64,000 nucleotides of DNA from Bacteroidaceae bacterium (GCA_017469685.1 JAFUFW010000055.1:40044-104043), one strand, 5' to 3'; counted from the first letter of the stretch, positions 3,601 through 46,301 are shown. Translations and numbers: made by a program. The notes: generated by a model not told the origin, from the letters alone.

Positions 3601-4114
3601 CATCGGCAATCCAAACCCCGACATCTATGGTAACATCTTCACAGCCCTGACGTGGAAAGACCTGCGCCTCGATGTCAACTTCCGCTATTCCCTCGGCAAC
3701 GACGTCTTCAACTATCAGCGTTCAATCATCGAGGGTGCCAACACGACTTACAACCAGACCACAGCTGTGCAGAACCGCTGGGCCTACGAAGGACAAGTCA
3801 CCAACATGCCTAAGGCTACATATATCGACAGCGAGGACTGGCGCAACAACGAGCGTATGTCCGACCGCTGGATCGAGGATGGCAGCTATCTCAAGCTCAA
3901 GAACGTCCGCCTGACGTATCGTGTGCCCCTGCACAACGAGTACATCCAAGGCCTGCGCGTCTGGGGCGAAGCCAACAACTTGTTCACCGTCACCCGCTAC
4001 CTTGGCGTCGATCCCGAGACGAGCGCTCGCAACAGCGCCCTCTTCCAAGGCATCGACACAGGCCTGCTCTCCGTAGGACGCAGCTTCAACCTGGGTGTAT
4101 CTATCAACCTCTAA
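650..4114 (+). CDS. SusC/RagA-family TonB-dependent outer membrane transporter
   Basis: 1154-aa ORF with a carboxypeptidase-regulatory-like segment (VAGTITDGATGAPMGGVRIQAL). Plug-like region is SIRGVNSLNANAQPLFIIDG...IQVIKNGTALYGAKGANGVVIINTKRG, followed by a long barrel. A SusD-like gene follows directly. The start could be 650, 677 or 683. Confidence 0.9.
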   Translation: MFTLNKSEIMSMRFYQSNLHKAFCRALCLMLVSGASIVPAAAQDEVDMDAINEADSISLVKRRLAKKPEKQYEMKHVAGTITDGATGAPMGGVRIQALQLPKYSTLTEEDGTYSIDVPVFCHTLLIDAPEYNLLQLAIKGESGQDARLLTSKLSGFYTDGTSIISQRKVLLDETSSLNVETDIQNLFAADVHSTSRSALLGQGAYMSIRGVNSLNANAQPLFIIDGNMVDLQEERTSLHQGFFNNILAGLDPETVESIQVIKNGTALYGAKGANGVVIINTKRGHSMATKINVRVYGGVELAPNRLSMMDGAAYRNYLSELSGTIKDVRESTNGDLSRYAFLNEAPESSNYYRSVFHNNTDWQKDLYRTAFTQNYKVSVEGGDDIGMYDLSLGYTKGDATLKGNDFSRLNLRFNTDIKVFEKVSTGLDIAYNQTSYNVLDNGWSSEYEMQNIGSPNVLGLLQASFLSPYAYYHDERTGRLELSHDYAGKYASTAVVGQWVQNPFAFPHGLDYDINECLRNPFWIIQNGKGKNKNYAELTQISINFSPKYQINKHLAISDRFNYTLNRNNEKYFLPINGATLYFLTDLGEISSVLKSQFTKESTINNDLRIEWGNNYGAHTVNVFGGWRYNNYGYSYSFMRGYNNENDKLPNISKNMQYVNYGGTKDNWIDMAYYLNADYNYQNKYFAQFTVSSQASSRFGHETKDGLHIGGVSWGIFPSLQLGWIISNEGWFDTTRGINYLKLTAGVDQSGNDGIDYYAARTYWESQQHTENTVGLVLKNIENTSIQWETTTRYNVALEGSFLHNRLNAGLDLFWSKTDNLLTVKDLDYISGLGKYWTNDGQLKNRGFEFHTSAALVNRKNVTWELGASIGHYNNKITKLPSSDVMTLADINGNVTDIIYGHTSSIYGKDNILTAVGYASGTFFGWQTNGVLASDAEARTAGVRGYLKYPTGLKETPYRDFQAGDVRFVDQNGDGVIDDNDRIAIGNPNPDIYGNIFTALTWKDLRLDVNFRYSLGNDVFNYQRSIIEGANTTYNQTTAVQNRWAYEGQVTNMPKATYIDSEDWRNNERMSDRWIEDGSYLKLKNVRLTYRVPLHNEYIQGLRVWGEANNLFTVTRYLGVDPETSARNSALFQGIDTGLLSVGRSFNLGVSINL

Positions 4115-4124
4115 TCCTACCATC

Positions 4125-6383
4125 ATGATGAAAAAGAATATTATTGCAACTCTCCTCTGCGCCCTCACCCTCGGCATGGGTTTCAGTTCTTGTGAGGACA
4201 TGCTCACAGGCGATATGGACCGCCACATCGAGGTCGACGAGCTGGCTCAGGATACCCTTTACAGCTACTGGGGCATCCTTCGCAGTCTCCAGCACATTGC
4301 CGAGCGCTATGTCATACTCGGTGAAGGGCGTGGCGACTTGATTGATGGTTCGCAGTACGTCAGCGACTCCATCAGCTCAATCCTCAACTTTGGCCTCGCA
4401 GGCAACGCTACAGACGGCTCCAACCGTTTCCTCAAGGCAGCCGACTACTACCATGTCGTCAATTCGTGCAACGCTTATCTCTATCGTGCAGACACGGCCG
4501 CCGTCTCGGGCCTCAACCGCCCGCTCATGCTCAGCGAGTATGCCCAGGTTGCTACCATCCGCGCATGGGCATACATGCAGCTCGTTCTCACTTACGGGCG
4601 CGTACCTTATTTCGAGAAGCCTATGCTCTCGACGGCCGACATGGAAGAATTCCGTAGCGCCACCAAGTATGTCGATGCTAACAGCCTTGCCTCGACCGAC
4701 GCCGTTAAGCTCGTCGACAAGTTGCGCTACGTTCCCACCATCCTTGCCGGCGACAGCATCCGCGTGATAGCCTACCCCAACTACTACAACTACGGTCTTT
4801 CCAGAGTAATTGCCCACTCCTCGCAATGCATCTTCCCGCAGGACGTAGTGCTGGGCGACATCTATCTGCTCCGTGCTCAGGGCGAAGGTTCTGAGGCCGA
4901 CTACCGCCAGGCAGCCCAGTACTACTACAATTTCCTCAATTCCGAGAAGGGCGGTCCGCTTCGTCCGAACGCCTACATGGCCTTCATGGAGAAGAATATG
5001 GCCACTGAGGAATATGTTCTGGACCCTATCAACAGCAACTGGCTCAGTTTGTTCCGCTCTACGGCTCAGACCAGCAACACAGCTGAACTCGTAACCGTAA
5101 TCCCCAGCAACACCAACAAACTCTGGGGCGACGTGCTCAGAGGCATCAACGAGCTCTTCGGCTATGAGGCCAGTATCCGCGTGAGCACATCAGCCAGTGA
5201 CTCCACGACGTCGTCATCCATCTCGCTCCGTACTGAGTTCGAGCACCAGCTCGATGCCTCAAAGGCATACTTCAACCTCAATAAGAGCCAAAACTTTGAA
5301 GCTTATATCGGCCAGTTGGGAACGCAGCGATGCACTGTCCTTCAGGGTGCCGGCGATGCTCGCTACTGGATGAGCACGACCAACTACACAGACTTCGATA
5401 AGGGCGCTCAGGAGGAAGTTAACTTCGTCCAGAAGCAGAACCCCTTCGGTGCGTTCAACACCACCTACCCCGTCATCTATCGCAAAGCCAACATTTGGCT
5501 CCACTTTGCCGAGGCTCTCAACGGAGCAGGCTTCCCAGGCTACGCTTTCGCTATCCTGCGCCACGGCCTCATCGGCACAGAGCAGTGGCTACCGACGTCA
5601 GAGGAGGACTACCCCTTCGACACCTTCAAGTACTACGACCCGACCGTCGCCACACCGACAGACACCGTCTTCTATGCAAACTTAATCGACCTCTATGATA
5701 CGCTTGTTGCAGGCCTCGACACGCTTGAGACCGACGAAGAGAAGAATGCGTTCTTAGACGAACACATGGGACGCGTCGGCCTGACACGCTCTCAGAAGAC
5801 CTACGGTGGCCTCGTCGTTTGCGACTACATCAGTCGCAGCGAGATGGAGAGAGCACGCAACGCCGCATTCCTTAACTTCAACACCACGTTCCTCAGAGGG
5901 CAGACTGGTAACAACGCTATTTACCTTTATGCCGGTATTACGGAGTACGGGCTCAGCCATGGCACTATCACTGAGACATTCCCCAACGGCCCCATCAGCA
6001 TGGGCATACATGCCCGCGGTTGCGGTCCATTAGCCCTAAGTGAGACTGGCTCGACCTACAACTACGTCGACCAGATCAACAAGATGCTTGCCCTCTACGA
6101 CGGGCAGGAAGAGCCACTCACTGCCGAGGAAATCTATGACCCCGCCAATCTGCGCACCGTACAGACGGCGATCGCCGCCCTTATCCTCGACGAGCTTGGC
6201 CTCGAGACCAGTTTTGAAGGCAACCGCTTCTTCGACCTTCTCACCTACAGCCGCTTCATAGGTGGCAGCAAAGGTGTTGAGCAAGTGGCCAAGAAGATTG
6301 CAGGGCGAAGCGGCGAGCTCAACAGTTCGCTCTACAGCCACCTGCTAAATCAGGACAACTGGTACTTCAAGCTTCCGAACTAA
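4125..6383 (+). CDS. SusD/RagB-family nutrient-binding outer membrane lipoprotein (unusually long, about 752 aa)
   Basis: Lipoprotein signal MMKKNIIATLLCALTLGMGFSSC. The gene lies 10 nt after the SusC-like stop. The ORF-track start at 4095 overlaps susC, so I prefer the ATG at 4125. Confidence 0.8.
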   Translation: MMKKNIIATLLCALTLGMGFSSCEDMLTGDMDRHIEVDELAQDTLYSYWGILRSLQHIAERYVILGEGRGDLIDGSQYVSDSISSILNFGLAGNATDGSNRFLKAADYYHVVNSCNAYLYRADTAAVSGLNRPLMLSEYAQVATIRAWAYMQLVLTYGRVPYFEKPMLSTADMEEFRSATKYVDANSLASTDAVKLVDKLRYVPTILAGDSIRVIAYPNYYNYGLSRVIAHSSQCIFPQDVVLGDIYLLRAQGEGSEADYRQAAQYYYNFLNSEKGGPLRPNAYMAFMEKNMATEEYVLDPINSNWLSLFRSTAQTSNTAELVTVIPSNTNKLWGDVLRGINELFGYEASIRVSTSASDSTTSSSISLRTEFEHQLDASKAYFNLNKSQNFEAYIGQLGTQRCTVLQGAGDARYWMSTTNYTDFDKGAQEEVNFVQKQNPFGAFNTTYPVIYRKANIWLHFAEALNGAGFPGYAFAILRHGLIGTEQWLPTSEEDYPFDTFKYYDPTVATPTDTVFYANLIDLYDTLVAGLDTLETDEEKNAFLDEHMGRVGLTRSQKTYGGLVVCDYISRSEMERARNAAFLNFNTTFLRGQTGNNAIYLYAGITEYGLSHGTITETFPNGPISMGIHARGCGPLALSETGSTYNYVDQINKMLALYDGQEEPLTAEEIYDPANLRTVQTAIAALILDELGLETSFEGNRFFDLLTYSRFIGGSKGVEQVAKKIAGRSGELNSSLYSHLLNQDNWYFKLPN

Positions 6384-6756: not shown

Positions 6757-9999
<3,243 letters not shown>

Positions 10000-10070
10000 C
10001 GAAAAAGCAGACCCACCCTCTCCCCGTGAGGGAGGGAGGGGTCACCTGTCAAGAATAGTTTTCACTGATA

Positions 10071-12110
10071 ATGAGCAAAACACATCTGTCAACAAAGGAA
10101 AACGCCCCCTCACTCAAAGTGAGGACTGGGGGTGAGTCTGCTTCATCTCTCATCTCGAAGGTTGGGAGAGGATTTTTATGGTGGCTTCCAGTCGTTGCCC
10201 TCATCATCGTAGCGGGCATCAGACTGACCTCACAAGAAAACGAGATGCTACTTCGGGCACAGGAGCTTAACCTTTGGCTGCCGACAGGCCTTTTTTGGAA
10301 GACTCTCATGCAGTACCCCGGCGGCGCTGCCACTTGGCTCGCCACCTACCTCACGCAGTACTTCTACCACCCTTGGCTCGGAGTGTCCATCCTCTGCATC
10401 CTGTGGCTCATCATCTGCCTCCTGTTGGCATTTGTCTATAAGCTCAAAGGGCCATGGACGATGCTCACAGCTTTAGTGCCCATGGCCCTGTTGGCCTGCA
10501 TCGTACAGACGGGCTATTGGATTTACTATCAGAAGCTTCCCGGGCATCTCTTCATTCCCACTGTAGGCATCCTTTTCGTTACCCTCTGCCTCGTCGTTCA
10601 GCGGCTCATTGACAAGTCTCTCCCTGCAAAGGCAGCCATGTGGGCACACTTCGTCTGGATGACTCTTGTGTGCATCATCGGCTACCCCTTCTTCGGAGCC
10701 TGGGCGCTGGGAGCTACAGCGCTGCTGGGAGTCAGCCCCCTCACCGCTTCCCCCGATGGAAAGGAGAAGGGCGGGCTCAAGAGCTCTTTTCCCTTGTGGG
10801 GAGTTAGATGGTGGCTTCTTATTCTTTACGCCATTCTCCTTATCACCGTCATTCCACAGCTCTATTATCAACATATATTCGGAATGACAGAGCGCACATT
10901 CGTCTACGCCGCAGCCATGCCATGCTTCCGCTACAGCAAAGACTCTTTCGAGATTTTCAGGCTGCCCTACTATGCCATAATCCTTGCTTTCACAATCCTT
11001 GCATTGGTTAGTGCAGGCGAAAGCTCTGCCTTCAACAAACGGCTGAAGGCACAAGTGAAAAGCATCATAGCGCTTTCACTCCTCTTCATCGCCATCATAG
11101 GCGTGCGTGCTTCATGGTACCACGATGTCAACTTCCAGAAAGAGCTGGCTATGAACAGGGCCATCGAAGAGCTCGATTGGGAACGCGTCCTTACCATCGC
11201 TCGCGATGGCAGCAGCGACATAAAGCCGACCCGGCAGATGGTGATGTACAAAAACCTCGCCCTCTTCCGCCTCGGGCGAGCCGGCAACGAGATGTTCAAC
11301 TACCCCGAAGGAGCCACACAGCAAAACGCGCCGTGGAAAGTGCGCATGACACAGATCGGAGCCAAACTAATCTATTACCACCACGGCAAGGAGAACTTCT
11401 GCTACCGCTGGTGTATGGAAGACGGAGTAGAGTTCGGATGGAAAGCCGAAACACTAAAATTCATGGCGCGCACAAGCCTGCTCAACAGAGAGTGGACGGT
11501 AGCACGCAAGTATCTCAACCTCCTGAAGAAGACAACGTTCCACCGAGCATGGGCCGAGCGCTACGAGAAATATCTTGCCACACCAGATGCTTTCGACCTT
11601 GAGAAACTTGAAGCCTCAGCCAAAGCTGGCAAGCCACTCCTCGACGAGCAAGGCATGAAGGAGTTTGCACCCATCCTGCACATGATGACCTATCCAGACC
11701 GCCTTGATGGCGACAATTCGCTCGTCGAGATGTACCTCATACAGACCTTCGGCAAAGGCAATGGCGACGATCCTCTCTTCCAGGAGATGACACTCATAGG
11801 AGCGCTCTACATGAAGGACATAGACCTCTTCTGGCCTCGCTTCATGAAGTATGCTACCACAAACCCCGACGTACACATGCCACGCCACTATCAGGAAGCT
11901 GCTTACCTCTACGGACATCTCGAGAACAAGGTGGACATCAGCCACATGCCCTTCGATCAAGAGGTGCGCGACACCTACGAACGCTTCATGAAATTCAACG
12001 AGCAGTGCGGCCTTATGACCGAGGAGCAGAAAGCCATCGCCTTCTATCCCCAGTTCGGCAACACCTTCTACTACTTCTACTTCCTCGTACGCAACCAAAA
12101 GACGAATTAA
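10071..12110 (+). CDS. polytopic membrane protein with a C-terminal helical soluble domain (possibly DUF6057-type)
   Basis: 679-aa ORF. The N-terminal roughly 340 aa contain many hydrophobic helices and the C-terminal roughly 330 aa are hydrophilic and helical. The stop is 3 nt before the next gene. The family name is from memory only. Confidence 0.55.
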   Translation: MSKTHLSTKENAPSLKVRTGGESASSLISKVGRGFLWWLPVVALIIVAGIRLTSQENEMLLRAQELNLWLPTGLFWKTLMQYPGGAATWLATYLTQYFYHPWLGVSILCILWLIICLLLAFVYKLKGPWTMLTALVPMALLACIVQTGYWIYYQKLPGHLFIPTVGILFVTLCLVVQRLIDKSLPAKAAMWAHFVWMTLVCIIGYPFFGAWALGATALLGVSPLTASPDGKEKGGLKSSFPLWGVRWWLLILYAILLITVIPQLYYQHIFGMTERTFVYAAAMPCFRYSKDSFEIFRLPYYAIILAFTILALVSAGESSAFNKRLKAQVKSIIALSLLFIAIIGVRASWYHDVNFQKELAMNRAIEELDWERVLTIARDGSSDIKPTRQMVMYKNLALFRLGRAGNEMFNYPEGATQQNAPWKVRMTQIGAKLIYYHHGKENFCYRWCMEDGVEFGWKAETLKFMARTSLLNREWTVARKYLNLLKKTTFHRAWAERYEKYLATPDAFDLEKLEASAKAGKPLLDEQGMKEFAPILHMMTYPDRLDGDNSLVEMYLIQTFGKGNGDDPLFQEMTLIGALYMKDIDLFWPRFMKYATTNPDVHMPRHYQEAAYLYGHLENKVDISHMPFDQEVRDTYERFMKFNEQCGLMTEEQKAIAFYPQFGNTFYYFYFLVRNQKTN

Positions 12111-12113
12111 GAC

Positions 12114-13814
12114 ATGACAGAAAAAAAGAAAAGGCAATGGCCGCTATGGGCCGTCGTTGGCCTTGTACTATTCCACATAATTCTGTTCGCAGCTACTGGC
12201 AAAGCCATCTTCGGCAGTTCTGCAAAAGTGCCATCATCGTTTACCGAGACCAACGACCTCCCCACCATCTATCCCGACTATGTCGGTGTCACAGTGCCTG
12301 CGAACATCGCTCCACTGCATTTCCACATCGACCACGACTCCGAAGCAACTGATTTCGTCACACGCCTCACCGCAGGTTCTGAGTCGTGGGCACTATCAGG
12401 CGATGATGTCCGCCCAGGACTAAAGAAATGGCACAAGATGGTCGACATGGCTCTCGCCGCCGAAGGCAATATCAACATTGAAGTTTTCATAAAGCGAGAA
12501 GATCGGTGGCTGCGTCAAAAGCCGTTCCAGATAACGGTCAGCACGGACAGCATCGACCCCTACATCTCCTATCGCCTCATCTCGCCCTCCTACGTCACCT
12601 ACGAGGACCTCACCCTCAATCAGCGATGCCTCGAGAACTTCGACGAAAGCCTCATCTATGGCAACATGATCAACTCCGATGAGGAAAACGGACAATGCAT
12701 CAACTGCCACCACGCTCAATGGTACAATCCCAACCGCGTACAGTTCCACGTACGCCAACATCTTGGAGGAACCGTTATCGCCTACGATGGCAAGGTCCAG
12801 AAAATTGACCTCAAGACGGATAGCACCATATCGGCAGGCGTCTATCCAACGTGGCACCCCACCAAGCCTTGGATAGTATATTCCACCAACAACACCGGAC
12901 AGAGCTTCCACACACGCGACGTAAAAAAGATCGAGGTTCAGGACACAAAGTCCAATCTCATCTTCTTCGACCTCGAGAGCAACACCGTCACGCCCATCAC
13001 CCGCGACACCACAGACTTCGATTGCTTCCCCTTCTGGAGTCCTGATGGTAAATACGTCTACTACGTAAGTGCTCATTGGGAGCGTCGCGACACCATCAAT
13101 ATGGATTTCGAGCTCATCCAAAACTACAAGGAAGTCCAGTATAACCTTTACCGGATTCCCTTTAACGAGAAAGACCAGACTTTCGGCCCACGCGAACTCA
13201 TCTACGACGCCGTTGCCCGCAACCGCAGCGTGACACTTCCACGTGTTTCTCCCGACGGCCGTTGGCTGATGTTCACTGAAGGACAGTTCGGAGTCTTCCA
13301 CATTTGGCACAATGATGCCGACCTATTCCTAATGGACCTCACCCAGGCCCAGCCTGTAGAGCCCACACACATCAATACCTACGACCGCCACAGGCTCTCA
13401 GAATATCTATTACCTCCTGATGCCAATAACCTACAGCGCGAAATCATCGCCGACAGCCTACGCGAAGAGCAGGGGCTGAGGACCCCACTCCCTGCTCACA
13501 TTCGCAACATCACAGAGATTAACTCGCCTGATGTCGAGAGCTACCATTCATGGTCGTCCAACGGTTGCTGGGTTATCTTCTCATCGCGCCGCGATGACGG
13601 CAATTTCACACGCCCCTTCATTGCTCACCACGACGGCAACGGACATTTCTCAAAGCCTTTTGAGCTGCCGCAGGACAACCCGCAGTACCATCGCCAGTTC
13701 ATGCGCAGCTACAACATTCCCGAGTTCCTCTTCGGGCCCGTAACCATACGGCCCCAGGAATTCGCCTCTGTCATCAAAAAAGACGCGACCAAAGCACAAC
13801 TCAAAATCAAATGA
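12114..13814 (+). CDS. PD40/TolB-like beta-propeller protein with a single CXXCH heme-c motif
   Basis: N-terminal TM/signal anchor. CINCH lies at nt 12696-12710. PD40-like repeats include FWSPDGKYVYYVS, RVSPDGRWLMFTE and WSSNGCWVIFSS. Confidence 0.7.
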   Translation: MTEKKKRQWPLWAVVGLVLFHIILFAATGKAIFGSSAKVPSSFTETNDLPTIYPDYVGVTVPANIAPLHFHIDHDSEATDFVTRLTAGSESWALSGDDVRPGLKKWHKMVDMALAAEGNINIEVFIKREDRWLRQKPFQITVSTDSIDPYISYRLISPSYVTYEDLTLNQRCLENFDESLIYGNMINSDEENGQCINCHHAQWYNPNRVQFHVRQHLGGTVIAYDGKVQKIDLKTDSTISAGVYPTWHPTKPWIVYSTNNTGQSFHTRDVKKIEVQDTKSNLIFFDLESNTVTPITRDTTDFDCFPFWSPDGKYVYYVSAHWERRDTINMDFELIQNYKEVQYNLYRIPFNEKDQTFGPRELIYDAVARNRSVTLPRVSPDGRWLMFTEGQFGVFHIWHNDADLFLMDLTQAQPVEPTHINTYDRHRLSEYLLPPDANNLQREIIADSLREEQGLRTPLPAHIRNITEINSPDVESYHSWSSNGCWVIFSSRRDDGNFTRPFIAHHDGNGHFSKPFELPQDNPQYHRQFMRSYNIPEFLFGPVTIRPQEFASVIKKDATKAQLKIK

Positions 13815-16093
13815 AGATGAAGAAGTCAGTATTATTTATCATTTATAATATATTATTTATTATTTCGGCAGTAGCCCAAGGCACCATCGACGACTACAAC
13901 CGTGCCTACTCTGCCTCCCGAACCTTCACTTGGGCTAAGGTCAAGAACTACGTCGACGACGCACGCTGGCTCCCCGACGGTCGTTTCCAGTACCACCTCA
14001 CCGACGGCGCCAGTGGCACATGGCATTTCGGCCAAGTCAACCCCGACGGCAGCATCACCCTCGCCGACAGTACCGCCGACCGTCCCATCGAAACGCCTAA
14101 CAATGATACGTTTCGCTCGCGACGCTTCACCCGCCGCGACCAAGGCCAGGGAGCCGTACGCTTCATTGCCAACCCATCAAAGCGCCGGCAGGAGCGCCAC
14201 TGGATGGAAACCGACGATGAGCGCGGCGCTGACCCAGTCTTCTCGCCCGACTCGTCACTCGTTGCCTTCATCCGCAACGACAACGTCTACATAGCACGCC
14301 CCGACGGCAGCAATGCCCGAGCCCTCAGCACCGAAGGCACCATCAGTCATTACTTCAGCAGCTATATCTCATGGAGTCCCGACGGCCGCTACGTGGCTGT
14401 CAACCGCATACGTCCCATCGACAAACGCTATGTCTATTATGTCGAGTCCTCACCCGCCGACCAGCTGCAGCCCATTCTCCACAAGCAGGAATATGCCAAG
14501 CCAGGCGACGAACTTGCACAGAAGACGCCCTACATTTTCGAAGTAGCCACCGGCCGTGCCATAACTCCCTCTCCCGACCTCATCGTCAACCAGTACGACC
14601 TCTCCCGACTCGAATGGTGCAACGACTCCCACGCCATTCGTTTCGAATACAACCAGCGCGGCCACCACCTCTACCGCGTCTACGAGATGGCCGTCCAAGG
14701 CGATGTCCGCACACTCATCGAGGAGCGCGAGGAGAAATACGTCCGCTACTCCAATAACTACCGTCGCGACCTCTGCGGAGACAGCCTTATCCTCTGGCTC
14801 TCTGAACGTGACGGTTTCCCACACCTCTACCTCTTCAACACCACAGTCTCCACCGCCAAAAAAGCATCCAAACGTCCCGCCCGAGGCAGTTTCCCCACCT
14901 CGTTTAAAGCCTCCGCCACAGAGTGCCCCTCTTTTCAGCTCACCTCCGGTTCCTGGTGCGTCCGCCGCGTCGTCCACATTGACGAGGAGAAAGGCTTCCT
15001 CATCTTCACCGCCAACGGACGTGGAGCCGCAATGGATTGCGCCTCTCTCGACGCCAAGCCCGAAGATCCCTACAACATACATTACTTCCGCGTAGGCCTC
15101 GACGGCAAAGGCCTTGTAGACCTCACTCCAGAGGACGGCAACCACAACGCACGCTTCAACGAGGACTACAGCGCCCTCATCGACACCTATTCCACTCAGG
15201 ACACGCCCCCCACGACCGTGGTTCGTTCTTTAAGCGGTAATTCCATTTCCGCCAAAACCCTCGCTACAGCAGACATCACCGACCTCCTCTCCGCAGGCTG
15301 GACCTCTCCCGAGATATTCGTTGCCCCTGGCCGCGACGGCGTTACCCCCATGTGGGGAATCATCCAGCGCCCCACACACTTCGACCCTACCCGCAAGTAC
15401 CCCGTCATAGAATACATCTATGCCGGCCCCGGCGACAGCTATACCCCCAAGTCCTTCCAGCCCTTCAACTACTACACCACCGCCCTTGCCGAGCTCGGTT
15501 TCATCGTCGTTCAGCTCGACGCCATGGGCACCAGCAACCGTGGCAAGAAGTTTGAAGAGGTCTGCTACAAAAATCTGAAGGACGCAGGTTTCCCCGACCG
15601 CATCGCATGGATGAAGGCCGCTGCTGCCAAATATCCATATATGGACATCGACCGCGTAGGCATCTATGGTTGCTCTGCCGGCGGCCAGGAAAGTACTGCG
15701 GCCGTCCTCTTCCACGGCGATTTCTACAAAGCCGCCTACAGCGCCTGCGGCTGCCACGACAACCGCATGGACAAGATCTGGTGGAACGAGCAATGGATGT
15801 CCTATCCTGTCGACTCATCATATATCAAGTGCTCTAATCTCGAGAATGCCTACCGCCTCGAGCGTCCTCTGATGCTCGTCGTCGGTGAGCTCGACGACAA
15901 TGTCGACCCCGCCAGCACGATGCAAGTCGCCAACGCCCTCATCAAGGCCAACAAACCTTTCGAGCTCGTCGTCATCCCCGGCGCTCACCACACCGTCGGC
16001 GAAGCCTATGGCGAACACAAGCGCTACGACTTCTTCGTCAAGCACCTTTTTGATGTCAATCCACCCGCCTGGAACGAGGTGAAGACCAAATAA
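13811..16093 (+). CDS. S9-family serine peptidase (DPP-IV-like N-terminal propeller plus prolyl-oligopeptidase catalytic domain)
   Basis: ATGA start/stop overlap with the upstream gene. Nucleophile elbow GIYGCSAGGQ. Candidate Asp is in VGELDDNVD and candidate His in PGAHHTV. An N-terminal signal peptide is present. Confidence 0.85.
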   Translation: MKMKKSVLFIIYNILFIISAVAQGTIDDYNRAYSASRTFTWAKVKNYVDDARWLPDGRFQYHLTDGASGTWHFGQVNPDGSITLADSTADRPIETPNNDTFRSRRFTRRDQGQGAVRFIANPSKRRQERHWMETDDERGADPVFSPDSSLVAFIRNDNVYIARPDGSNARALSTEGTISHYFSSYISWSPDGRYVAVNRIRPIDKRYVYYVESSPADQLQPILHKQEYAKPGDELAQKTPYIFEVATGRAITPSPDLIVNQYDLSRLEWCNDSHAIRFEYNQRGHHLYRVYEMAVQGDVRTLIEEREEKYVRYSNNYRRDLCGDSLILWLSERDGFPHLYLFNTTVSTAKKASKRPARGSFPTSFKASATECPSFQLTSGSWCVRRVVHIDEEKGFLIFTANGRGAAMDCASLDAKPEDPYNIHYFRVGLDGKGLVDLTPEDGNHNARFNEDYSALIDTYSTQDTPPTTVVRSLSGNSISAKTLATADITDLLSAGWTSPEIFVAPGRDGVTPMWGIIQRPTHFDPTRKYPVIEYIYAGPGDSYTPKSFQPFNYYTTALAELGFIVVQLDAMGTSNRGKKFEEVCYKNLKDAGFPDRIAWMKAAAAKYPYMDIDRVGIYGCSAGGQESTAAVLFHGDFYKAAYSACGCHDNRMDKIWWNEQWMSYPVDSSYIKCSNLENAYRLERPLMLVVGELDDNVDPASTMQVANALIKANKPFELVVIPGAHHTVGEAYGEHKRYDFFVKHLFDVNPPAWNEVKTK
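13830..13865 (+). repeat. solo copy of an AT-rich repeat (same family as 17197-17230 and 17591-17628)
   Basis: tattatttatcatttataatatattatttattattt encodes LFIIYNILFII of the signal peptide. By my hand alignment it matches the 17.6 kb copy at 33 of 39 nt. Confidence 0.5.
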
Positions 16094-16099
16094 TAGAAA

Positions 16100-17209
16100 A
16101 TGGAACCAATCCTCACAGAACAACAAATAGCCCTCTGGCACTCTCTCATCGCAGCAGCCCGACACATCGTCATCACCTGCCACCGCGGCCCCGATGGCGA
16201 TGCCATAGGCTCCGCCACGGCCCTCTCATCATGGCTTCAGCGCCACTATCCCGAAGCAGACATCCACATCATTGCCCCAAATATCTTCCCCGACTTCCTG
16301 AAATGGATTCCAGAAGCCGAAGATATTCTCATCTATGATAAACACGAGGACGAGGTAAATCCCATCATCGAAGCTGCCGACCTCGTCATCATGTGCGACC
16401 ATGGCGAGCTCAAACGTATGGCCACCCTGGGTGATGCCATTCGCCCTCTCCTACCCTCCGGCGGAGCACCTGAAGGCCGCACCCGCTGCATAATGATTGA
16501 CCACCATCTCGACCCAGAGCCTGGCATCGCCGATCTGGTCATTTCTCATCCCGACCTCTCTTCCACTTGCGAGGTACTGATGCGAGTGATGATGGAGACC
16601 TCCCCTCTCTCTCACAGGGAGAAGCTTGTTGGGGGGGCTGGCCTCCTCACCCAATCTGAAGCCACATCCCTCTACACAGGCATGATGACCGACACCGGAG
16701 CCTTCACCTACGCCAGCAACCGCCCCGAAATCTTCGAGCTCATCAGCATTCTCCTCCAATACGGCATCGACAAGGACAAGATCTACCGCAACGTCTTCTT
16801 CACCTACAGCCACAACCGCATGAAGCTCATGGGCTACATGCTCTACGTGAAGCTCGATGTTTGGAAGAAAGCCCACACCTCTGTCATGACGTTCACCAAC
16901 GCCGAGCGCCGTCGCTTCGGCATACTCAACGGCGACACCGAGGGCCTCGTCAACCTCCCACTTCAGATTCTCGGCATGAAGCTTTCCGTCTTCCTGCGCG
17001 AGGACACCGAGCACCCTTGCATCCGCGTCAGCCTCCGCTCCGTCGACGACTTCCCCTGCAACGAGATGGCAGCCGAGTTCTTCGGCGGCGGCGGTCACAA
17101 GAACGCTGCCGGCGGCGAGGTTTGGGGAACCATGGACGATGCCCTCGCCCTCGTAAAGAAAGCCGTACAGAAATATATGCCGCTCCTGAAGGAGGGAGAT
17201 AATAAATAA
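16100..17209 (+). CDS. DHH-family phosphoesterase (NrnA-like oligoribonuclease/pAp phosphatase)
   Basis: Motifs HRGPDGDAIGS, IMIDHHLD, MMTDTGAFTY and GGGGHKNAAGG (DHHA1). Confidence 0.85.
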   Translation: MEPILTEQQIALWHSLIAAARHIVITCHRGPDGDAIGSATALSSWLQRHYPEADIHIIAPNIFPDFLKWIPEAEDILIYDKHEDEVNPIIEAADLVIMCDHGELKRMATLGDAIRPLLPSGGAPEGRTRCIMIDHHLDPEPGIADLVISHPDLSSTCEVLMRVMMETSPLSHREKLVGGAGLLTQSEATSLYTGMMTDTGAFTYASNRPEIFELISILLQYGIDKDKIYRNVFFTYSHNRMKLMGYMLYVKLDVWKKAHTSVMTFTNAERRRFGILNGDTEGLVNLPLQILGMKLSVFLREDTEHPCIRVSLRSVDDFPCNEMAAEFFGGGGHKNAAGGEVWGTMDDALALVKKAVQKYMPLLKEGDNK

Positions 17210-17230
17210 TAAATGATAAATAATAACATA
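17197..17230. repeat. left inverted-repeat arm flanking the four-helix-bundle gene
   Basis: The reverse complement of agataataaataataaatgataaataataac matches 17591-17621 at 28 of 31 nt by hand. The arm contains the DHH gene's tandem stops and the ATG at 17213. Confidence 0.55.
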
Positions 17231-17569
17231 CTTGCTGAAAAGAGCACTAACTTTGGTGTAAGGATGGTGCACTGTCATCAGTTCTTGACAAGGGAAAAGA
17301 AAGAGTATGTTCTTTCAAAACAGATATATCGCAGCGGAACTAGCATTGGAGCCAACATACATGAAGGAGTTTTTGCACAAAGCAAAGCTGATTTCATATC
17401 CAAGTTGGGAATAGCCTTAAAAGAAGCTGGAGAAACTGCATATTGGCTAAAATTATTATTTCGTTCAAATTACCTTGATGAACATCTCTATAACTCGCTT
17501 CATACTGACTGCGAAGAACTCATAAAAATATTAACTGCAACTATCAAATCCTCAAAAGAAAACCTATAG
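17213..17569 (+). CDS. four-helix-bundle protein (23S rRNA intervening-sequence protein / Avd-like family)
   Basis: Diagnostic core EYVLSKQIYRSGTSIGANIHEG...KADFISKLGIALKEAGETAYWLKLL. The gene is visibly AT-rich relative to its neighbours. Confidence 0.85.
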   Translation: MINNNILAEKSTNFGVRMVHCHQFLTREKKEYVLSKQIYRSGTSIGANIHEGVFAQSKADFISKLGIALKEAGETAYWLKLLFRSNYLDEHLYNSLHTDCEELIKILTATIKSSKENL

Positions 17570-17573
17570 CACT

Positions 17574-20120
17574 ATGAAACCATCATCGAAGTTATTATTT
17601 ATTATCTATTATTTATTATTTATCATTTCAGCACCAGTTTCAGCCTCCACCGATGATGCCGCCGCTGTCCTCAACCAAATCATCAAGGTCAACAACTACT
17701 GGCAGGCTCACAACACCCCCTACGTCCGCTCCTTCTGGGACCACGCCGCCTACCACACCGGCAACATGGAAGCCTACCACCTCACCGGCCGTGCCGACTG
17801 GTACGCCTACACCGACAAGTGGTGCCGCCACAACGAGTGGAAAGGTGCCAAGAGCGACGACCGCAAGAATTGGAAGTACAAAACCTACGGCGAAGGGCAG
17901 GATTTCGTTCTCTTCGGCGACTGGCAGATTTGCTTCCAGACATATATAGATATGTACAACCTCGTGCCCGCACCCTACAAGGTGGCCCGCGCCATCGAGG
18001 TGATGAGCCACGAATGCTCCATGGAGGACACCCACTTCTGGTGGTGGGCCGATGCCCTCTACATGGTCATGCCCGTCATGACGAAGATGTACAAGCTCAC
18101 CGGCGAGGTGAAATATCTCGATAAGCTCTACGAGAACTTCCTCTGGAGCGACAGCCTCATGTACGACCCCGACGAACAGCTCTACTACCGCGATGCCAAG
18201 TACATCTACCCCAAGGTGAAGACTGCCTGCGACGACGGCAAGAGCTTCTGGGCACGCGGCGACGGCTGGGTGCTGGCCGGTCTGGCCAAGGTGCTGGCCG
18301 ACATGCCGCAGGACTACAAGAACCGCACCATCTTCGTGCAGCGCTTCCGTGAGCTCGCCGAGGGCGTAGCCCGCGTGCAGCGCCCCGATGGCTACTGGAG
18401 CCGCTCCATGCTCTGCGAGGATGATGCTCCAGGCCCCGAGACCTCCGGCACTGCCTTCTTCACCTATGGTATGCTCTGGGGTGTCAACCACGGCTATCTC
18501 GACCGCGACCGCTTCCTGCCCGTCATCCATAAAGCTTGGAAGTACCTCAGCGAGACAGCCCTGCAACCCGACGGCAGCATCGGCTTCGTGCAGCCCATCG
18601 GCGAGAAGCCCGACCCCACCAAGACCGTTGACGCCCACTCCCAAGCCCCCTTTGGCACGGGTGCATGGCTCCTTGCTGCCTGCGAGATGGTCCGTTTCCT
18701 CGATGCCGATCCGCTCGTCCCCGCTCCCAACCCCGATGCCATTACCAACTCCATCTACCACCACACCCCTGGCACCCCAACCGTCAGCGGCCCCGTAGGC
18801 GGCGGTTCGTCCGTCGCCATCGCTCCCTCTGGCTCCCCCACCGCTGCTGACCCTCGCCTCCGCCATACTGGCCACAAGAGCTTGGGCAGCTATGAAATCA
18901 AGAACCCCACGGCCGACAACATCGCCCAAGTCGTGGAAATCACCACAATCGAAGCCCTCCGCAAGGCAGGCATCGCCGTTGCCCGAGAGTTCTTCTTCCT
19001 CGACGGCGACCGCAACGAAGTGCCCTACCAGATTACCCACGACGGCCGCGTGCTCGTCTTCTGCAGCGTGCGCCCCCATAGCAGCATCATCCTCACAATG
19101 TACAAAGGTCAGCCCCTCGACTATGAACTCACCGCCAACGGACGCATCTACCCCAACCGCTGGGACGACCTCGTATGGGAGAACGACCGCGGCGCTTGGC
19201 GTTTCTATGGTCCTGGTGCCCACAAGAATATGAAAAACAACGCCTACGGATTCGACACCTTCGTCAAGAACACCCCCCACCCCATCCAGGACCAGCTCTA
19301 CCACAACGAACTCACCTCCTACGGCGTCAACGAGCGCATCAAGCGCGACAAGAGCTCACTCAACTGGAACGAAGTGCACCGCGGCTACACCTACCACCGC
19401 AACCACGGCGCAGGCATGGATGCCTACACCGTCGGTGCCACTCTCGGAGCCGGTGCAGCAGCACTCATAGCCCCCTCAACGCTAAACGCGAAACGCTCAA
19501 CTCCAGATCTATTATATCCTCTCTATTACGAGACTGCAGAAATTCTCGACAACGGTCCCCTCCGCTTCACCGTCCGTATGACTATGCCCGCCCGCCCATC
19601 GACAGCGCTCGGCGGTTCTGTCGCCGAGTCCCCCGCCGACTCTATCCGCGAAGTCCGCCTCATCACCCAGGACTGCGGCAGTCACTTTGCCCGTGTCGAA
19701 GTCACCTACGAGGGTCTCGAACATCCCACCCCCGTCTGTGCCGGCATTGTGGTTCATGAGAGCAACCCAGACGGCTACGTCCTCAACCAGAAAGAAGGCT
19801 TCGTCACCTACGCCGAGGCCCTCGACCATCCTGAGACCATGAACGGCGAGCACTACCTCGGAATCTTCATGCCGCAGATACAAGAGAAGAAGAAAAAAGA
19901 GAAAACCGAGGTGAAATATATCCCTCTCACCGAAAAGCGTGCTGGCGGCATCGGTCACGCCATCATCCAGACCACCTACACCCCTGGCCAACCCTTCGTC
20001 TACTATACCGGCAGCGCCTGGAGCCTCTATGACGTTCCCACCCACGCCATCTGGCAGCAGACCCTCCGCCACGAAGCCAGCATCCTGCAGCACGGCCTCC
20101 AGGTGACTATTGATGATTAA
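17574..20120 (+). CDS. GH88/GH105-family unsaturated glycuronyl hydrolase fused to a DUF4861-like C-terminal domain
   Basis: The N-terminal half carries FWWWADALYMVMPVM and FWARGDGWVLAGLAKVL, typical of PF07470-type hydrolases. The C-terminal half carries WENDRGAWRFYGPG...GFDTFVKN...GAGMDAYTVGATLGAGA, which resembles DUF4861. Confidence 0.75.
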   Translation: MKPSSKLLFIIYYLLFIISAPVSASTDDAAAVLNQIIKVNNYWQAHNTPYVRSFWDHAAYHTGNMEAYHLTGRADWYAYTDKWCRHNEWKGAKSDDRKNWKYKTYGEGQDFVLFGDWQICFQTYIDMYNLVPAPYKVARAIEVMSHECSMEDTHFWWWADALYMVMPVMTKMYKLTGEVKYLDKLYENFLWSDSLMYDPDEQLYYRDAKYIYPKVKTACDDGKSFWARGDGWVLAGLAKVLADMPQDYKNRTIFVQRFRELAEGVARVQRPDGYWSRSMLCEDDAPGPETSGTAFFTYGMLWGVNHGYLDRDRFLPVIHKAWKYLSETALQPDGSIGFVQPIGEKPDPTKTVDAHSQAPFGTGAWLLAACEMVRFLDADPLVPAPNPDAITNSIYHHTPGTPTVSGPVGGGSSVAIAPSGSPTAADPRLRHTGHKSLGSYEIKNPTADNIAQVVEITTIEALRKAGIAVAREFFFLDGDRNEVPYQITHDGRVLVFCSVRPHSSIILTMYKGQPLDYELTANGRIYPNRWDDLVWENDRGAWRFYGPGAHKNMKNNAYGFDTFVKNTPHPIQDQLYHNELTSYGVNERIKRDKSSLNWNEVHRGYTYHRNHGAGMDAYTVGATLGAGAAALIAPSTLNAKRSTPDLLYPLYYETAEILDNGPLRFTVRMTMPARPSTALGGSVAESPADSIREVRLITQDCGSHFARVEVTYEGLEHPTPVCAGIVVHESNPDGYVLNQKEGFVTYAEALDHPETMNGEHYLGIFMPQIQEKKKKEKTEVKYIPLTEKRAGGIGHAIIQTTYTPGQPFVYYTGSAWSLYDVPTHAIWQQTLRHEASILQHGLQVTIDD
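17591..17628. repeat. right inverted-repeat arm flanking the four-helix-bundle gene
   Basis: gttattatttattatctattatttattatttatcattt lies inside the GH88/105 gene and encodes LLFIIYYLLFIIS. Confidence 0.55.
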
Positions 20121-20203
20121 ATAATAAGTAGGTAGTCATCATTTATCATCGGAAAAGATCGTTTTCACTTGGCCGGGTCAACAAATTCGCCTTCCTTTGT
20201 GGC

Positions 20204-20385
20204 ATGAAACGCTGGCTCACTCTCCTCCTGCTTGTTTTGGCCATAACCGCCTACGCTGTGTTCCAGTTCAAAGGCGAATTTCCCTTTACCTATCCCATTC
20301 CGCTCGGGGAAGATACGTTAACCATGACGGTTCCATCACCATCGCCAACGTGACCGCCCTCGTGAACATCATCCTCGGGAAATAG
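20204..20385 (+). pseudogene. small secreted dockerin-repeat-like gene, apparently frameshifted
   Basis: The ATG at 20204 gives signal peptide MKRWLTLLLLVLAITAYA and stops at 20351-20353. A different frame encodes the Ca-loop/helix-like VNHDGSITIANVTALVNIILGK, ending at 20385. Confidence 0.3.
20316..20372 (+). repeat. 57-bp direct repeat, copy 1
   Basis: cgttaaccatgacggttccatcaccatcgccaacgtgaccgccctcgtgaacatcat matches 21398-21454 at 54 of 57 nt by hand count. Confidence 0.85.
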
Positions 20386-20404
20386 ACTACCATTCCACAA
20401 ACGC

Positions 20405-20452
20405 CTCCGCCGCCAGCAGCCTCATTATCGTGAGGAGTTGCTGGCGGCGGAG
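20405..20452 (-). terminator. strong GC-rich hairpin downstream of the HEPN gene (terminator candidate)
   Basis: The 14-bp perfect outer stem ctccgccgccagca / tgctggcggcggag is extended by the inner stem cctca/tgagg. Only a weak T-tract follows on the minus strand. Confidence 0.4.
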
Positions 20453-20504
20453 TGGGTTGTGTGGGTTAAAGGGTTAAAGTGACAGCCTTGATTGGCCAAT
20501 AACT

Positions 20505-20921
20505 TCATTTTGGTTCTCCTTTCGGCTCTGATATGTAGTTGCGGATTTTGTTGATGAGTTGGCGAGTTGGGTCGATGTATGGAGTGAGCTTTTCCTCGTC
20601 TGCTTCAAAGAAACAATTGTAATCTGCATTGTCTCGCATAATAACCAAATCAGAAAGCAAGGAACCATCGCGACGCTCAAAGATACCAGTACGCACATAA
20701 TGCTCTCCAAACAAAGCCATTATACCTCGATGGCTTTTAACATTATGGCCGTCATGTATAAGAAGCGCAGATGTTGCATGGAAAAGTGCGTAGTAAAGAC
20801 GATTGGCTGCTGCTTCCCATTTACCTTCTCTTGCACAGAAATCCATATCATCGAATGTCCTTTGGGCTTTCTCAAGCTCGCGGCTGACAACTATCCGGCG
20901 TTCGCTTTCACTTAGACTCAT
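20505..20921 (-). CDS. HEPN-domain protein (toxin of a HEPN/MNT pair)
   Basis: 138 aa with helical HEPN-like sequence including LYYALFHATSALL and the C-terminal MRDNADYN motif region. It overlaps the upstream MNT gene by 4 nt. Confidence 0.8.
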   Translation of the reverse strand: MSLSESERRIVVSRELEKAQRTFDDMDFCAREGKWEAAANRLYYALFHATSALLIHDGHNVKSHRGIMALFGEHYVRTGIFERRDGSLLSDLVIMRDNADYNCFFEADEEKLTPYIDPTRQLINKIRNYISEPKGEPK

Positions 20922-21235
20922 AGCAAAACTTGTTTATCTTCTTCCACATTATAGAAGAATGGGGAATGGGGGCCATTGTACCAGTCATCTTTGGTGTAAG
21001 CATGTGGGCGTATATCTTCTCCGATATTCCAACCCATTTCTACAAACGGATAAGAATAACGGTCGAAGTCTTCGAAGTCCAATCGAGCCTTGTCGAGCAG
21101 CAAAAGCAAATCCCAATCAGAGTCTTTGTGGTGGTCTCCACGCGCACGAGAACCATATAAGTATAAACTACTTCCACGTGGCAACACCTTGGCTGCCACC
21201 TGCTTTATATTGTCTATGACCTGTAAGTTCTCCAT
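20918..21235 (-). CDS. minimal nucleotidyltransferase (MNT antitoxin partner)
   Basis: LYLYGSRARGDHHKDSDWDLLLLL matches the GSxxxG...DxD signature of the pol-beta NTase fold. The protein is 105 aa. Confidence 0.85.
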   Translation of the reverse strand: MENLQVIDNIKQVAAKVLPRGSSLYLYGSRARGDHHKDSDWDLLLLLDKARLDFEDFDRYSYPFVEMGWNIGEDIRPHAYTKDDWYNGPHSPFFYNVEEDKQVLL

Positions 21236-21257
21236 CGTCTACCGCTTTATCTGTCTG

Positions 21258-21265
21258 CAAATATA
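21258..21265 (-). promoter_or_regulatory. -7 promoter box (TATATTTG) for the MNT-HEPN operon
   Basis: The minus strand reads tatatttgcag, about 23 nt upstream of the MNT start. Confidence 0.45.
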
Positions 21266-21397
21266 TGGAAGAACTTCGATACAGACAAAAAAAAAGCCTT
21301 ATTTCTCTAAATCAAAATGTTTTTTACCAGTTTCAGAGAAATAAACGAAAGAATAATGGGACATAATGGCGATGAAATATGACTTCGACGACGACGA

Positions 21398-21454
21398 CGT
21401 TAACCATGACGATTCCATGACCATCGCCGACGTGACCGCCCTCGTGAACATCAT
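21398..21454 (+). repeat. 57-bp direct repeat, copy 2
   Basis: cgttaaccatgacgattccatgaccatcgccgacgtgaccgccctcgtgaacatcat lies in a short ORF MAMKYDFDDDDVNHDDSMTIADVTALVNII that starts at 21367. Confidence 0.85.
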
Positions 21455-21560
21455 TCAAAGTTTTTTTCTTCATTTTTCCCTCAATCCCTCAAACCTGTTG
21501 ATTCTCGGGTCGTTAAGGCTGAGGGAAGGCTGAGAATTTGCATAAATGTATTATTTGACA

Positions 21561-21568
21561 TATCTTTG
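21561..21568 (+). promoter_or_regulatory. -7 promoter box (TATCTTTG)
   Basis: tatctttgcag lies about 70 nt upstream of the ATG at 21638. Confidence 0.4.
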
Positions 21569-21637
21569 CAGCCGAAAAACAACAGGGCGTTGACACGACG
21601 TCCAATTTCTTAACCTTTTATCTATTATAATTCATCT

Positions 21638-22078
21638 ATGGAAAACAACATTTTCTCCAAAATGCCCGTCAACTGGACGGTGTGCATGCAGGCCGACTGC
21701 CCTCTGCACGGGGGGTGTCTGCGCTATCAAGCCTTCGAACACATCAAGACGCTCTACTCGCGACAGAGCTGCGTGCTGCCATCGGCGCGTGACGAGAAGG
21801 GATGCCGCTACCACATCCCCTTCGTCAAAGTGCAGGTGGCGTGGGGGATGCGCGAGTTGCTCTCCGACATCAAGAAGAGCGATGCCAGGCAGATGCGAGC
21901 ACACATCAAGGCGCTCTTCCGCAGCCATTCCACCTACTACCGCTACTACAACGGCCACTACTCCATCTCTCCACGACAGCAGCAGGCTATCCGCCGCATC
22001 TTCAAGAGCTTTGGCTACGACCCCGACTGCGTTCGCTTCGACCGAGTCGAGCGGAACTACTTCTTTCCTCAATCGTAG
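21638..22078 (+). CDS. Cys-rich hypothetical protein
   Basis: 146-aa ORF with an N-terminal CMQADCPLHGGC...SC...GC cluster and a basic C-terminal half. I recognise no family. Confidence 0.5.
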   Translation: MENNIFSKMPVNWTVCMQADCPLHGGCLRYQAFEHIKTLYSRQSCVLPSARDEKGCRYHIPFVKVQVAWGMRELLSDIKKSDARQMRAHIKALFRSHSTYYRYYNGHYSISPRQQQAIRRIFKSFGYDPDCVRFDRVERNYFFPQS

Positions 22079-45327: not shown

Positions 45328-46257
45328 ATGTGGACCAAACCTTGGAACTGGCGTGAGGGTTCAGCTATTTGCCTCGTGCTTACAGTGGCAGGCCTACTGC
45401 TTCAATTGCGTTTCGGCCCTGTCTCATGGTCTGTTTTTGCATGGCCCGCCAACATTATAACGCTGGCAACCCTCGTCGGTGCCCTTGTTATAATGCATCT
45501 AACGCGCAAGAGAGTCTACTTTTTCCGCTTTCTCTCAACGCTTCATGCCGCCCTTCCCTCCATCGTCACCTCCCTCGTGCTGACGATGATTATGGGTCTA
45601 ATCAGGCAGGACGATGGCGGACAATGGTTCTCCAACATGCTTACCTTCTGGCCTTTCGTGCTCGCCTATGTCTATATGACTATCATCGTTGGGCTAACCA
45701 CGCTCCGTCGCCTGTCGAGTATCATAAAGGGCCTCATTCCCTCAAAGCCCGCCCAACCGACAAAAGTTCGGGTTAAGCTGAACGACATGGCTTTCGTGCT
45801 CAACCATGCAGGCTTGTTCCTGGCCCTCACATGCGCCACCCTCGGCAATGCCGACCTCCGGGATCTTGAGATGATTACCAACCAAGGAGCAATAGAATGG
45901 CGGGGCGTCGACGCAGACGGCGTTCTCCACGACCTGCCAATAGCCATTGAATTGCAACGCTTTATTATGGAGACCTACGACGATGGTTCTCCTAAACGTT
46001 TTGCTTCAGATATTCGCGTCCGCACCAAACGAGGCAAGGATTTTGAGGCAACTGTCGACGTCAATCACCCCGTAGAGGTTGATGGCTGGAAGATCTATCA
46101 GTACAGCTACGACACACAAGCCGGTGCAGCCAGCCGCATCAGCGTCTTCGAATTGGTGCGCGACCCGTGGCTTCCATACGTCTATGCCGGCATCTTCATG
46201 ATGCTTGCCGGAGCCCTCTTTATGCTCTTTGGCAAGAATTCACGCCCAGCAATGTAA
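45328..46257 (+). CDS. ResB/CcsB-like cytochrome c biogenesis protein (short form)
   Basis: TM helices, NHAGLFLAL, and FASDIRVRT...VDVNHPVEVDGWKIYQYSY...VRDPWLPYVYAG match the ResB layout. The gene lies directly upstream of ccsA. Confidence 0.7.
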   Translation: MWTKPWNWREGSAICLVLTVAGLLLQLRFGPVSWSVFAWPANIITLATLVGALVIMHLTRKRVYFFRFLSTLHAALPSIVTSLVLTMIMGLIRQDDGGQWFSNMLTFWPFVLAYVYMTIIVGLTTLRRLSSIIKGLIPSKPAQPTKVRVKLNDMAFVLNHAGLFLALTCATLGNADLRDLEMITNQGAIEWRGVDADGVLHDLPIAIELQRFIMETYDDGSPKRFASDIRVRTKRGKDFEATVDVNHPVEVDGWKIYQYSYDTQAGAASRISVFELVRDPWLPYVYAGIFMMLAGALFMLFGKNSRPAM

Positions 46258-46301
46258 GCTGCAGCTTCAAACGAGCAACCCTCACACTACGAATTGTCAA
46301 G

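Follow-up and report, generated by a model that had tools for sequence, protein, structure and literature searches.

A DUF6057 membrane protein and a TolB-like propeller as a recurrent two-gene envelope module beside a lineage-specific S9 peptidase gene

A gene pair and its neighbours

The stretch of DNA considered here (hereafter the window) comprises 64,000 nucleotides (nt) of a Bacteroidaceae bacterium (GCA_017469685.1 JAFUFW010000055.1:40044-104043). Between positions 10071 and 16093, it carries three consecutive open reading frames (ORFs) encoding a large polytopic membrane protein of the DUF6057 family, a PD40 β-propeller protein resembling TolB and a serine peptidase of the S9 family (Table 1). 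The first two ORFs are separated by 3 nt (TAA-GAC-ATG) and the last two overlap by 4 nt (ATGA), as the initial annotation of the locus had described. Because all three are long and each has a family match above a curated cut-off, chance reading frames are excluded. From this arrangement, a single envelope protein-processing or quality-control module of three proteins had been envisaged. The comparison of many loci leads to another picture. The first two genes make up one copy of an envelope module of two genes that are inherited and duplicated together and, in some cases, fused. The peptidase gene is a neighbour found in one lineage only.

The association of the two genes was counted from both sides. 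On the DUF6057 side, 40 loci, with about 14 kb around each, were chosen from the listed matches (4 from the phylum-wide search and 36 from that of the genus and order, mostly higher-scoring). On the propeller side, the best 80 of 131 relatives were used, with one genome per species; the search pattern, an alignment of three paralogues, contained the CxNCH motif discussed below. A propeller gene lies directly downstream and on the same strand for 39 of the 41 DUF6057 genes present at the 40 loci. The exceptions are a locus having no propeller gene (L084) and another in which this gene is upstream (L094). Conversely, DUF6057 is encoded directly upstream of the propeller at 77 of the 80 loci (two others, L128 and L172, are cut by a contig end and L182 shows the reverse order), a count that shares some contigs with the previous one, so that the two overlap and are not independent, which has to be held against the pairing as a matter of sampling. 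The genome of the bacterium itself contains three genes of each kind and no more, every one of them adjacent to its partner. The two pairs outside the window are arranged in tandem on the minus strand of contig C44 (L004:5377-17999 in G000, the source genome), immediately downstream of the gene for an M60-like peptidase, which also has a ricin-type lectin domain, and of a 1015-residue ORF lacking any Pfam match; YchF is also among their neighbours.

Fusion proteins provide a further argument. Among 150 listed representatives of the propeller family, four (P0273, P0287, P0341, and P0357) combine the two proteins in one polypeptide, with DUF6057 first and the propeller after it. These fusions are considered genuine because the two parts are joined by a linker, found in place of a signal peptide. 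The lack of a signal peptide between the parts also places the C-terminal domain of DUF6057 on the periplasmic side, and this domain and the propeller lie on the same side of the membrane. Finally, the pairwise identities of the two partners are correlated (r 0.95 over 118 pairs), DUF6057 diverging faster (mean identity 29% vs 47% for the propeller). As adjacent genes share their descent, this correlation does not prove binding; it shows co-inheritance and co-duplication.

The propeller family forms 423 clusters at 50% identity (E <= 1e-30). DUF6057 was found in all 36 other genomes of the genus that were searched (1-10 matches each), in 2 of 24 genomes representing other families of its order, and above cut-off in 6 of the 401 genomes of a phylum-wide sample, that of the bacterium itself being counted. 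Many neighbours of the other pairs are related to glycans, with GH2, GH3, GH10, GH31, GH43, GH116, CBM and SusD proteins. Others are porins or belong to housekeeping functions, such as DNA polymerase III tau, isocitrate/isopropylmalate dehydrogenase, ParAB and RsgA. Full-text literature searching, the coverage of which leaves out most subscription journals, retrieved no paper on the pair. Two precomputed families, PF26549 and PF26550, are attached to the propeller proteins and may carry further information; no paper naming them was found. The pair is a real, widespread and unstudied module that fits no described system.

Two observations made at more distant loci may be added. In genome G073, the DUF6057 gene (L069:4303-6164) is broken by several stop codons, its propeller partner being intact. 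Moreover, a protein of about 396-414 amino acids with a RidA-like (Ribonuc_L-PSP) C-terminal domain adjoins the pair in four genomes that are distant but belong to the same phylum (Table 1); it could be a lineage-specific third partner.

The third gene behaves differently from the pair. Its product has a signal-like N-terminus and matches PF00326 (Peptidase_S9, E 6.9e-45) and PF00930 (DPPIV_N, E 5.8e-39). The closest solved chain is 2d5l_A (E 1.2e-48), with GCSAGG aligned to GWSYGG and the Ser/Asp/His triad in register, which bears out the initial description of a secreted serine peptidase with an intact GxSxGG motif. The protein reaches no NCBIfam equivalog cut-off; it adds a new member to a family that is already known. 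At 8 of the 40 loci examined from the DUF6057 side and at 22 of the 80 examined from the propeller side, an S9 gene comes next after the pair. At all of these 22 loci the propeller is 71-83% identical to that of the window, and no S9 gene is found among the 58 loci at <=53%. In a FastTree phylogeny of 123 propeller rows, 118 of them distinct, the 31 that are linked to the peptidase make up one side of a single branch with a support of 100. The S9-linked loci also keep the GH2, DHH and GH88 genes in one SusC/SusD-GH2-...-GH88 synteny block, and neither of the other two pairs of the same genome has an S9 gene beside it. Because the peptidase corresponds to a single change on the tree and the GH2, DHH and GH88 genes are retained at the same loci, it belongs to the synteny block of one clade. 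Like the DHH and glycoside hydrolase genes, the peptidase gene is therefore a lineage-specific neighbour only and not part of the module. The S9 enzyme would be an ordinary periplasmic exopeptidase that the pair does not need. Within its clade, the gene is probably co-transcribed with the pair, as suggested by the spacing alone. As to the remark that no function is described for this combination, no paper on the trio was found; the trio itself is not a conserved unit, because the peptidase is co-conserved in one clade only and what is conserved is the first two genes.

The whole block forms a polysaccharide-utilisation-type setting (resembling a polysaccharide utilisation locus, PUL), with some housekeeping-like genes interspersed. 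A scan for consensus promoters and terminators gave counts at chance level. A G+C-rich stem-loop at 10010-10045, in the 71-nt gap between the GH2 and DUF6057 genes, has a folding energy not significantly below that of shuffled sequences (z -1.65). Just past the glycan locus, a VapE-like / DUF3874 protein gene (22284-23462, plus strand) lies in a stretch of lower G+C content (0.477 at 20001-22000) and may mark the edge of a mobile element.

Table 1. Positions of the genes and motif discussed in the text (window coordinates unless a locus is named; aa, amino acids)
Feature	Position	Strand	Remarks
DUF6057 inner-membrane protein gene	10071-12110	+	679 aa; Pfam PF19529 E 1.3e-74
TolB-like six-bladed PD40 propeller gene, obligate partner of DUF6057	12114-13814	+	566 aa; PD40 match
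Codons for C195-I-N-C-H199 (CxNCH motif inside propeller)	12696-12710	+	translation
Secreted S9B (DPP-IV / prolyl-tripeptidyl-peptidase type) serine peptidase gene	13811-16093	+	760 aa; Peptidase_S9 + DPPIV_N
SusC-like receptor	650-4114		first gene of block
SusD-like	4095-6383		after SusC-like gene
GH2 beta-galactosidase	6778-9999		upstream of DUF6057 gene
DHH/NrnA-like	16100-17209		downstream of S9 peptidase gene
Four-helix-bundle protein	17213-17569		downstream of DHH gene
GH88+DUF4861	17574-20120		last gene of block
ResB-like gene	45328-46257	+	309 aa; PF05140 E 1.5e-21
CcsA-like gene	46167-47093	+	308 aa; PF01578 E 1.3e-33
Di-haem oxidoreductase (DHOR) lipoprotein gene	G000 contig C38, L198:4584-6020	-	another likely c-type cytochrome of this anaerobe
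RidA-like-domain protein genes	L066:5167-6408, L067:8462-9649, L068:9948-11135, L069:8024-9211

Folds of the two partners

The membrane protein matches PF19529 (DUF6057) with 252.6 bits vs a cut-off of 29.8. The match extends over residues 41-672 and covers profile positions 10-567 of 569; no NCBIfam model matched this ORF. A model was obtained with AlphaFold2 from a 36-sequence alignment, with a predicted local distance difference test (pLDDT) of 90.0 and a predicted template modelling score (pTM) of 0.89. Its helix list suggests a membrane part of about nine helices, reaching residue 348. Residues 353-672 form a domain made of helices only, in agreement with the transmembrane part of about 340 residues followed by some 330 residues of helical domain that had been noticed initially. 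After the first membrane helix, the model displays two short helices (57-65 and 73-79) in the first outside loop.

The two halves have different structural matches. For residues 24-351, the best VIA-align matches are to six different families of GT-C glycosyltransferases, the sole membrane proteins near the top of the results: Pmt1/2 (Z 10.1, 273 residues aligned, root-mean-square deviation (rmsd) 7.1), Pmt4 (Z 9.6), STT3 (9.3), ALG3 (8.8), AftA (8.2) and ArnT (7.9). Within the C-terminal domain, residues 424-507 match TPR proteins with Z values of 8-9, and YbgF (2xev) is matched at Z 7.1. In the protein atlas, DUF6057 is likewise connected to TPR proteins (score 0.80), which is a lead only. 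Two other roles were considered for the membrane protein. That of a transporter was rejected because none is present among the top fold matches, and that of a signalling sensor because the model has no cytoplasmic domain.

The consistency of the GT-C matches is suggestive, not proof, and several results have to be set against a glycosyltransferase origin. Below a Z of about 13, helical bundles can match through their arrangement alone, and the values of 8-10 observed here fall in this range. Foldseek, run with the DUF6057 model against the PDB, gave nothing at E <= 0.001 and returned repeat-protein noise only. An hhalign comparison with the TMEM260-like GT-C protein of the genus, that is with one GT-C family and a low-diversity alignment, reached a probability of 2.4%. 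In GT-C glycosyltransferases, a conserved acid opens the first extracytoplasmic loop, ahead of two short interface helices; in DUF6057, acidic residues of this loop are frequent and not invariant (position 58 acidic in 87 and position 65 in 77 of 111 distinct sequences). The strongest polar conservation is found in the periplasmic rather than in the membrane domain. Lastly, GT-C enzymes use sugar donors linked to polyprenyl phosphate, and no donor gene of the GT2 or GtrA type occurs among the 99 neighbouring ORFs scanned. The best-conserved polar residues, all periplasmic, are E450 (acidic in 110 of 111), K480 (basic in 108 of 111) and R446 (Arg or His in 111 of 111), and the conserved positions of the membrane domain are mostly Gly and Pro. 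In addition, searching the PDB sequences with the DUF6057 protein gave no match, and searching with its profile gave chance-level rows only (E >= 0.037). With these points weighed against the model, we consider it reasonably probable that the membrane domain derives from the GT-C fold. That it would still be active, moving a sugar from a lipid carrier onto an envelope protein or glycan which the TPR/propeller part presents, is a less likely extension and is put forward as a possibility only.

The fold of the partner is better anchored. The AlphaFold2 model of the propeller protein (90-sequence alignment, pLDDT 92.3) has TolB (1c5k_A) as its best structural match, with Z 26.0, rmsd 3.2 and 270 residues aligned, and Foldseek also recovers TolB (E 4.8e-14). 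With a PDB sequence search, only chance-level rows were obtained (E >= 0.037). These results, together with the N-terminal helix, the PD40 repeats and the CINCH sequence at 195-199, substantiate the membrane-anchored or secreted propeller with a possible haem c motif proposed at the outset. Despite this likeness, the protein does not qualify as a TolB orthologue, the equivalog TIGR02800 giving 27.6 bits vs a cut-off of 343.15. No Tol or Pal family was encountered at the loci scanned, the neighbours here being GH2, S9 and DHH genes. In the protein atlas, look-alike PD40 clusters (score 0.97) are commonest in Planctomycetota and bear the automatic name 'Cytochrome C biosynthesis protein family protein'.

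The protein of the window has an N-terminal helix (11-33) and no lipobox Cys, and is signal-anchored or secreted. Among the 99 of 123 rows in which the anchor motif was found, a lipobox is present in 65 of the 68 that lie outside the peptidase-linked clade and in 22 of the 31 that belong to it. The propeller of this clade also has about 45-50 extra residues (window 13350-13500, residues ~415-460), modelled with low confidence as two helices. Between the motifs on either side of it, the median spacing is 70 residues in the clade vs 21 elsewhere (10 and 62 rows with both motifs, respectively).

The CxNCH cluster and its candidate cofactor

Most structural matches of the propeller protein begin near residue 148, and the CxNCH motif is therefore located inside the propeller. 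Its conservation was examined in an alignment of 90 sequences made of the window protein, two paralogues and 87 sequences chosen from the 150 listed representatives, fused, short and some other proteins being omitted. Both cysteines are kept in 89 of 90 sequences and Asn197 in 87, and His199, Arg154 and Arg214 are present in all of them. Two further histidines, His212 (82/90) and His248 (85/90), are also well conserved. One variant lineage (a 6-member cluster represented in several assemblies) has lost both cysteines and His212 together and has kept His199 and Arg214.

A CXXCH motif in an exported protein is what would be expected of a c-type cytochrome, and export is indicated here by the N-terminal helix and by the lipobox of the relatives. 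Furthermore, the window contains overlapping ResB-like and CcsA-like genes, located downstream of an ORF for an outer-membrane β-barrel (Alginate_exp-like, 43759-45216). PF01578 occurs in 40 of 41 genomes of the genus. These two genes possibly specify a System II cytochrome c maturation machinery that could load haem onto CxNCH, and, because they are present in the window, covalent attachment of haem c to the motif is plausible. NrfA was not found in the genome of the bacterium, which is 87% complete.

Other data are neutral or weigh against the haem reading. The genome encodes a 479-residue lipoprotein with two CXXCH motifs, belonging to the di-haem oxidoreductase family (E 2.7e-60). Because this DHOR protein is another likely substrate, the maturation genes are only permissive for haem at CxNCH. 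The CXXCH of c-type cytochromes sits in a helical turn; in the present model, CxNCH is in a β-strand (194-201). In the corresponding hairpin, His199 and His212 would share one side, and a small metal site would fit the model equally well as haem. All in all, the chances appear evenly divided as to whether the conserved Cys-x-Asn-Cys-His/His/Arg cluster binds a cofactor, most likely haem c attached via the ResB/CcsA-type system of the window.

Possible roles and known systems

Considering these properties, a mechanism may be envisaged. The periplasmic TPR-like domain of DUF6057 would hold the cognate propeller at the inner membrane as a complex, the conserved cluster at the centre of the propeller would house a cofactor, and the membrane domain may be a transferase, active or vestigial, of GT-C descent. 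The complex between the TPR-like domain and the propeller is, in our opinion, the likely part of this scheme. Taken as a whole, the explanation combining a two-gene envelope module, a cofactor-bearing propeller and a peptidase that is simply a neighbour is on balance the one we would retain, with restrained confidence. It is tempting to go further and to imagine that the propeller is a new c-type cytochrome, carrying covalent haem inside a TolB-like propeller. Together with its GT-C-derived partner, it would modify envelope or secreted glycans or glycoproteins in a redox-dependent manner, in a much duplicated system often found in PULs of rumen and gut Bacteroidales. This extended version is rather unlikely at present.

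Other explanations lead to different views of the pair. In the one suggested by the initial annotation, the three proteins would build one envelope processing or quality-control machine, the S9 enzyme being catalytic and the other two delivering or gating substrates. The tight spacing of the genes (3-nt gap and ATGA overlap), the maintenance of the trio at all 8 + 22 loci of the orthologous clade, and the additional 45-50 residues in the propeller of that clade would suit such a machine. The distribution of the genes largely refutes it: the peptidase is missing from 32 of 40 and 58 of 80 pair loci, it has a single origin on the tree, where it is confined to one clade (31 of the 123 propeller rows, one change), it moves with the unrelated DHH and GH88 genes, and the two other pairs of the same genome have no adjoining S9 gene. 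Nothing supports a processing role that includes the peptidase, which travels with GH2, DHH and GH88 as a synteny block, and we regard this machine as very improbable. Alternatively, DUF6057 might serve its cognate CXXCH propeller alone, maturing or anchoring it, and be comparable with CcmF/NrfE together with CcmI/NrfG, the propeller alone being the working part. The strict one-to-one pairing with co-duplication, the combination of a polytopic membrane domain with a TPR-like domain, and the fact that the motif-bearing partner is always the adjacent gene are all in keeping with this idea. However, the membrane domain has neither an invariant His nor a Trp-rich motif, ResB/CcsA-like genes are already present in the genome, and the fusions join the two parts permanently, an arrangement easier to reconcile with a stable complex than with a passing step of maturation. 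A maturation factor hence seems improbable, to a lesser degree than the three-protein machine.

A more serious competitor concerns the nature of the site. CxNCH might be a small metal site (Zn, Fe or Cu) or a redox-active Cys site, and the pair a structural or tethering device reminiscent of Tol-Pal, in which the TolB-like propeller would be combined with a membrane-anchored TPR domain resembling CpoB. This would account for the β-strand in which the motif is modelled and for the joint loss of Cys195, Cys198 and His212 in the natural variant. It would also agree with TolB being by far the best structural match (Z 26.0) and with the resemblance of the C-terminal domain to TPR proteins including YbgF (2xev, Z 7.1). 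On the other hand, the exact C-x-x-C-H spacing, the His present in 90 of 90 sequences and the two invariant Arg are together what covalently bound haem, with contacts to its propionates, would be expected to require; the proteins are also exported, and the genome has genes for haem maturation. Moreover, no tolQRA or pal gene is found beside any of the pairs examined, and the score against the TolB equivalog (27.6 vs 343) is far under its cut-off. We consider such a tether doubtful, less so than the maturation factor. Returning to the two-gene module with a cofactor-bearing propeller, haem bound at the motif would mean a previously unknown cytochrome architecture. Likewise, an active GT-C enzyme in the membrane part would mean an unknown route of envelope glycosylation in major fibre-degrading gut bacteria. 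In annotating such loci, the genes for the S9 peptidase, DHH and GH proteins are to be kept apart from the DUF6057-propeller module, a pair that is abundant and has no structure or paper attached to it.

It is useful to compare these proteins with known systems. The peptidase resembles the Porphyromonas-type S9B exopeptidases (2d5l/2z3w, 'dipeptidyl aminopeptidase IV, putative', and 5olj, DPP IV) in its DPPIV_N and Peptidase_S9 domains and in its aligned Ser/Asp/His triad, and differs in that it stays under every NCBIfam equivalog cut-off. For DUF6057, the nearest architectures are GT-C enzymes with C-terminal TPR (TMTC1-4 and TMEM260; PMT, STT3 and ArnT may also be considered), which have in common with it a polytopic N-terminal domain followed by an extracytoplasmic TPR-like domain. 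In TMTC and TMEM260 proteins, a GT-C membrane domain is reported to be combined with a C-terminal TPR region (PMC7801869, PMC10214176, 10.64898/2026.03.17.711096). In contrast with these enzymes, DUF6057 shows no detected sequence or profile similarity to them, its first-loop acid is not invariant, genes for donor synthesis are absent from the 99 ORFs scanned nearby, and it has an obligate propeller partner.

As for the partner, TolB of the Tol-Pal system (1c5k, 7mx5, 4r40) is also periplasmic and has a six-bladed PD40 propeller after an N-terminal domain. The identity over aligned residues is 15%, and the propeller of the pair differs from TolB by its CxNCH/His/Arg cluster, by being usually a lipoprotein and by its association with DUF6057 instead of tolQRA-pal. 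The haem-lyase modules CcmF/CcmI and NrfE/NrfG associate a polytopic membrane protein and a TPR module, serving particular apocytochromes. The likeness resides in a polytopic protein and a TPR module encoded beside a CXXCH-bearing client, but DUF6057 has no conserved His or WWD-type motif and no homology was detected. In cytochrome cd1 nitrite reductase, the centre of the propeller binds a non-covalent haem d1 and the c haem is carried by a separate helical domain. Both proteins would be periplasmic β-propellers binding a tetrapyrrole, with the difference that, in the protein described here, the CXXCH motif lies within the propeller itself.

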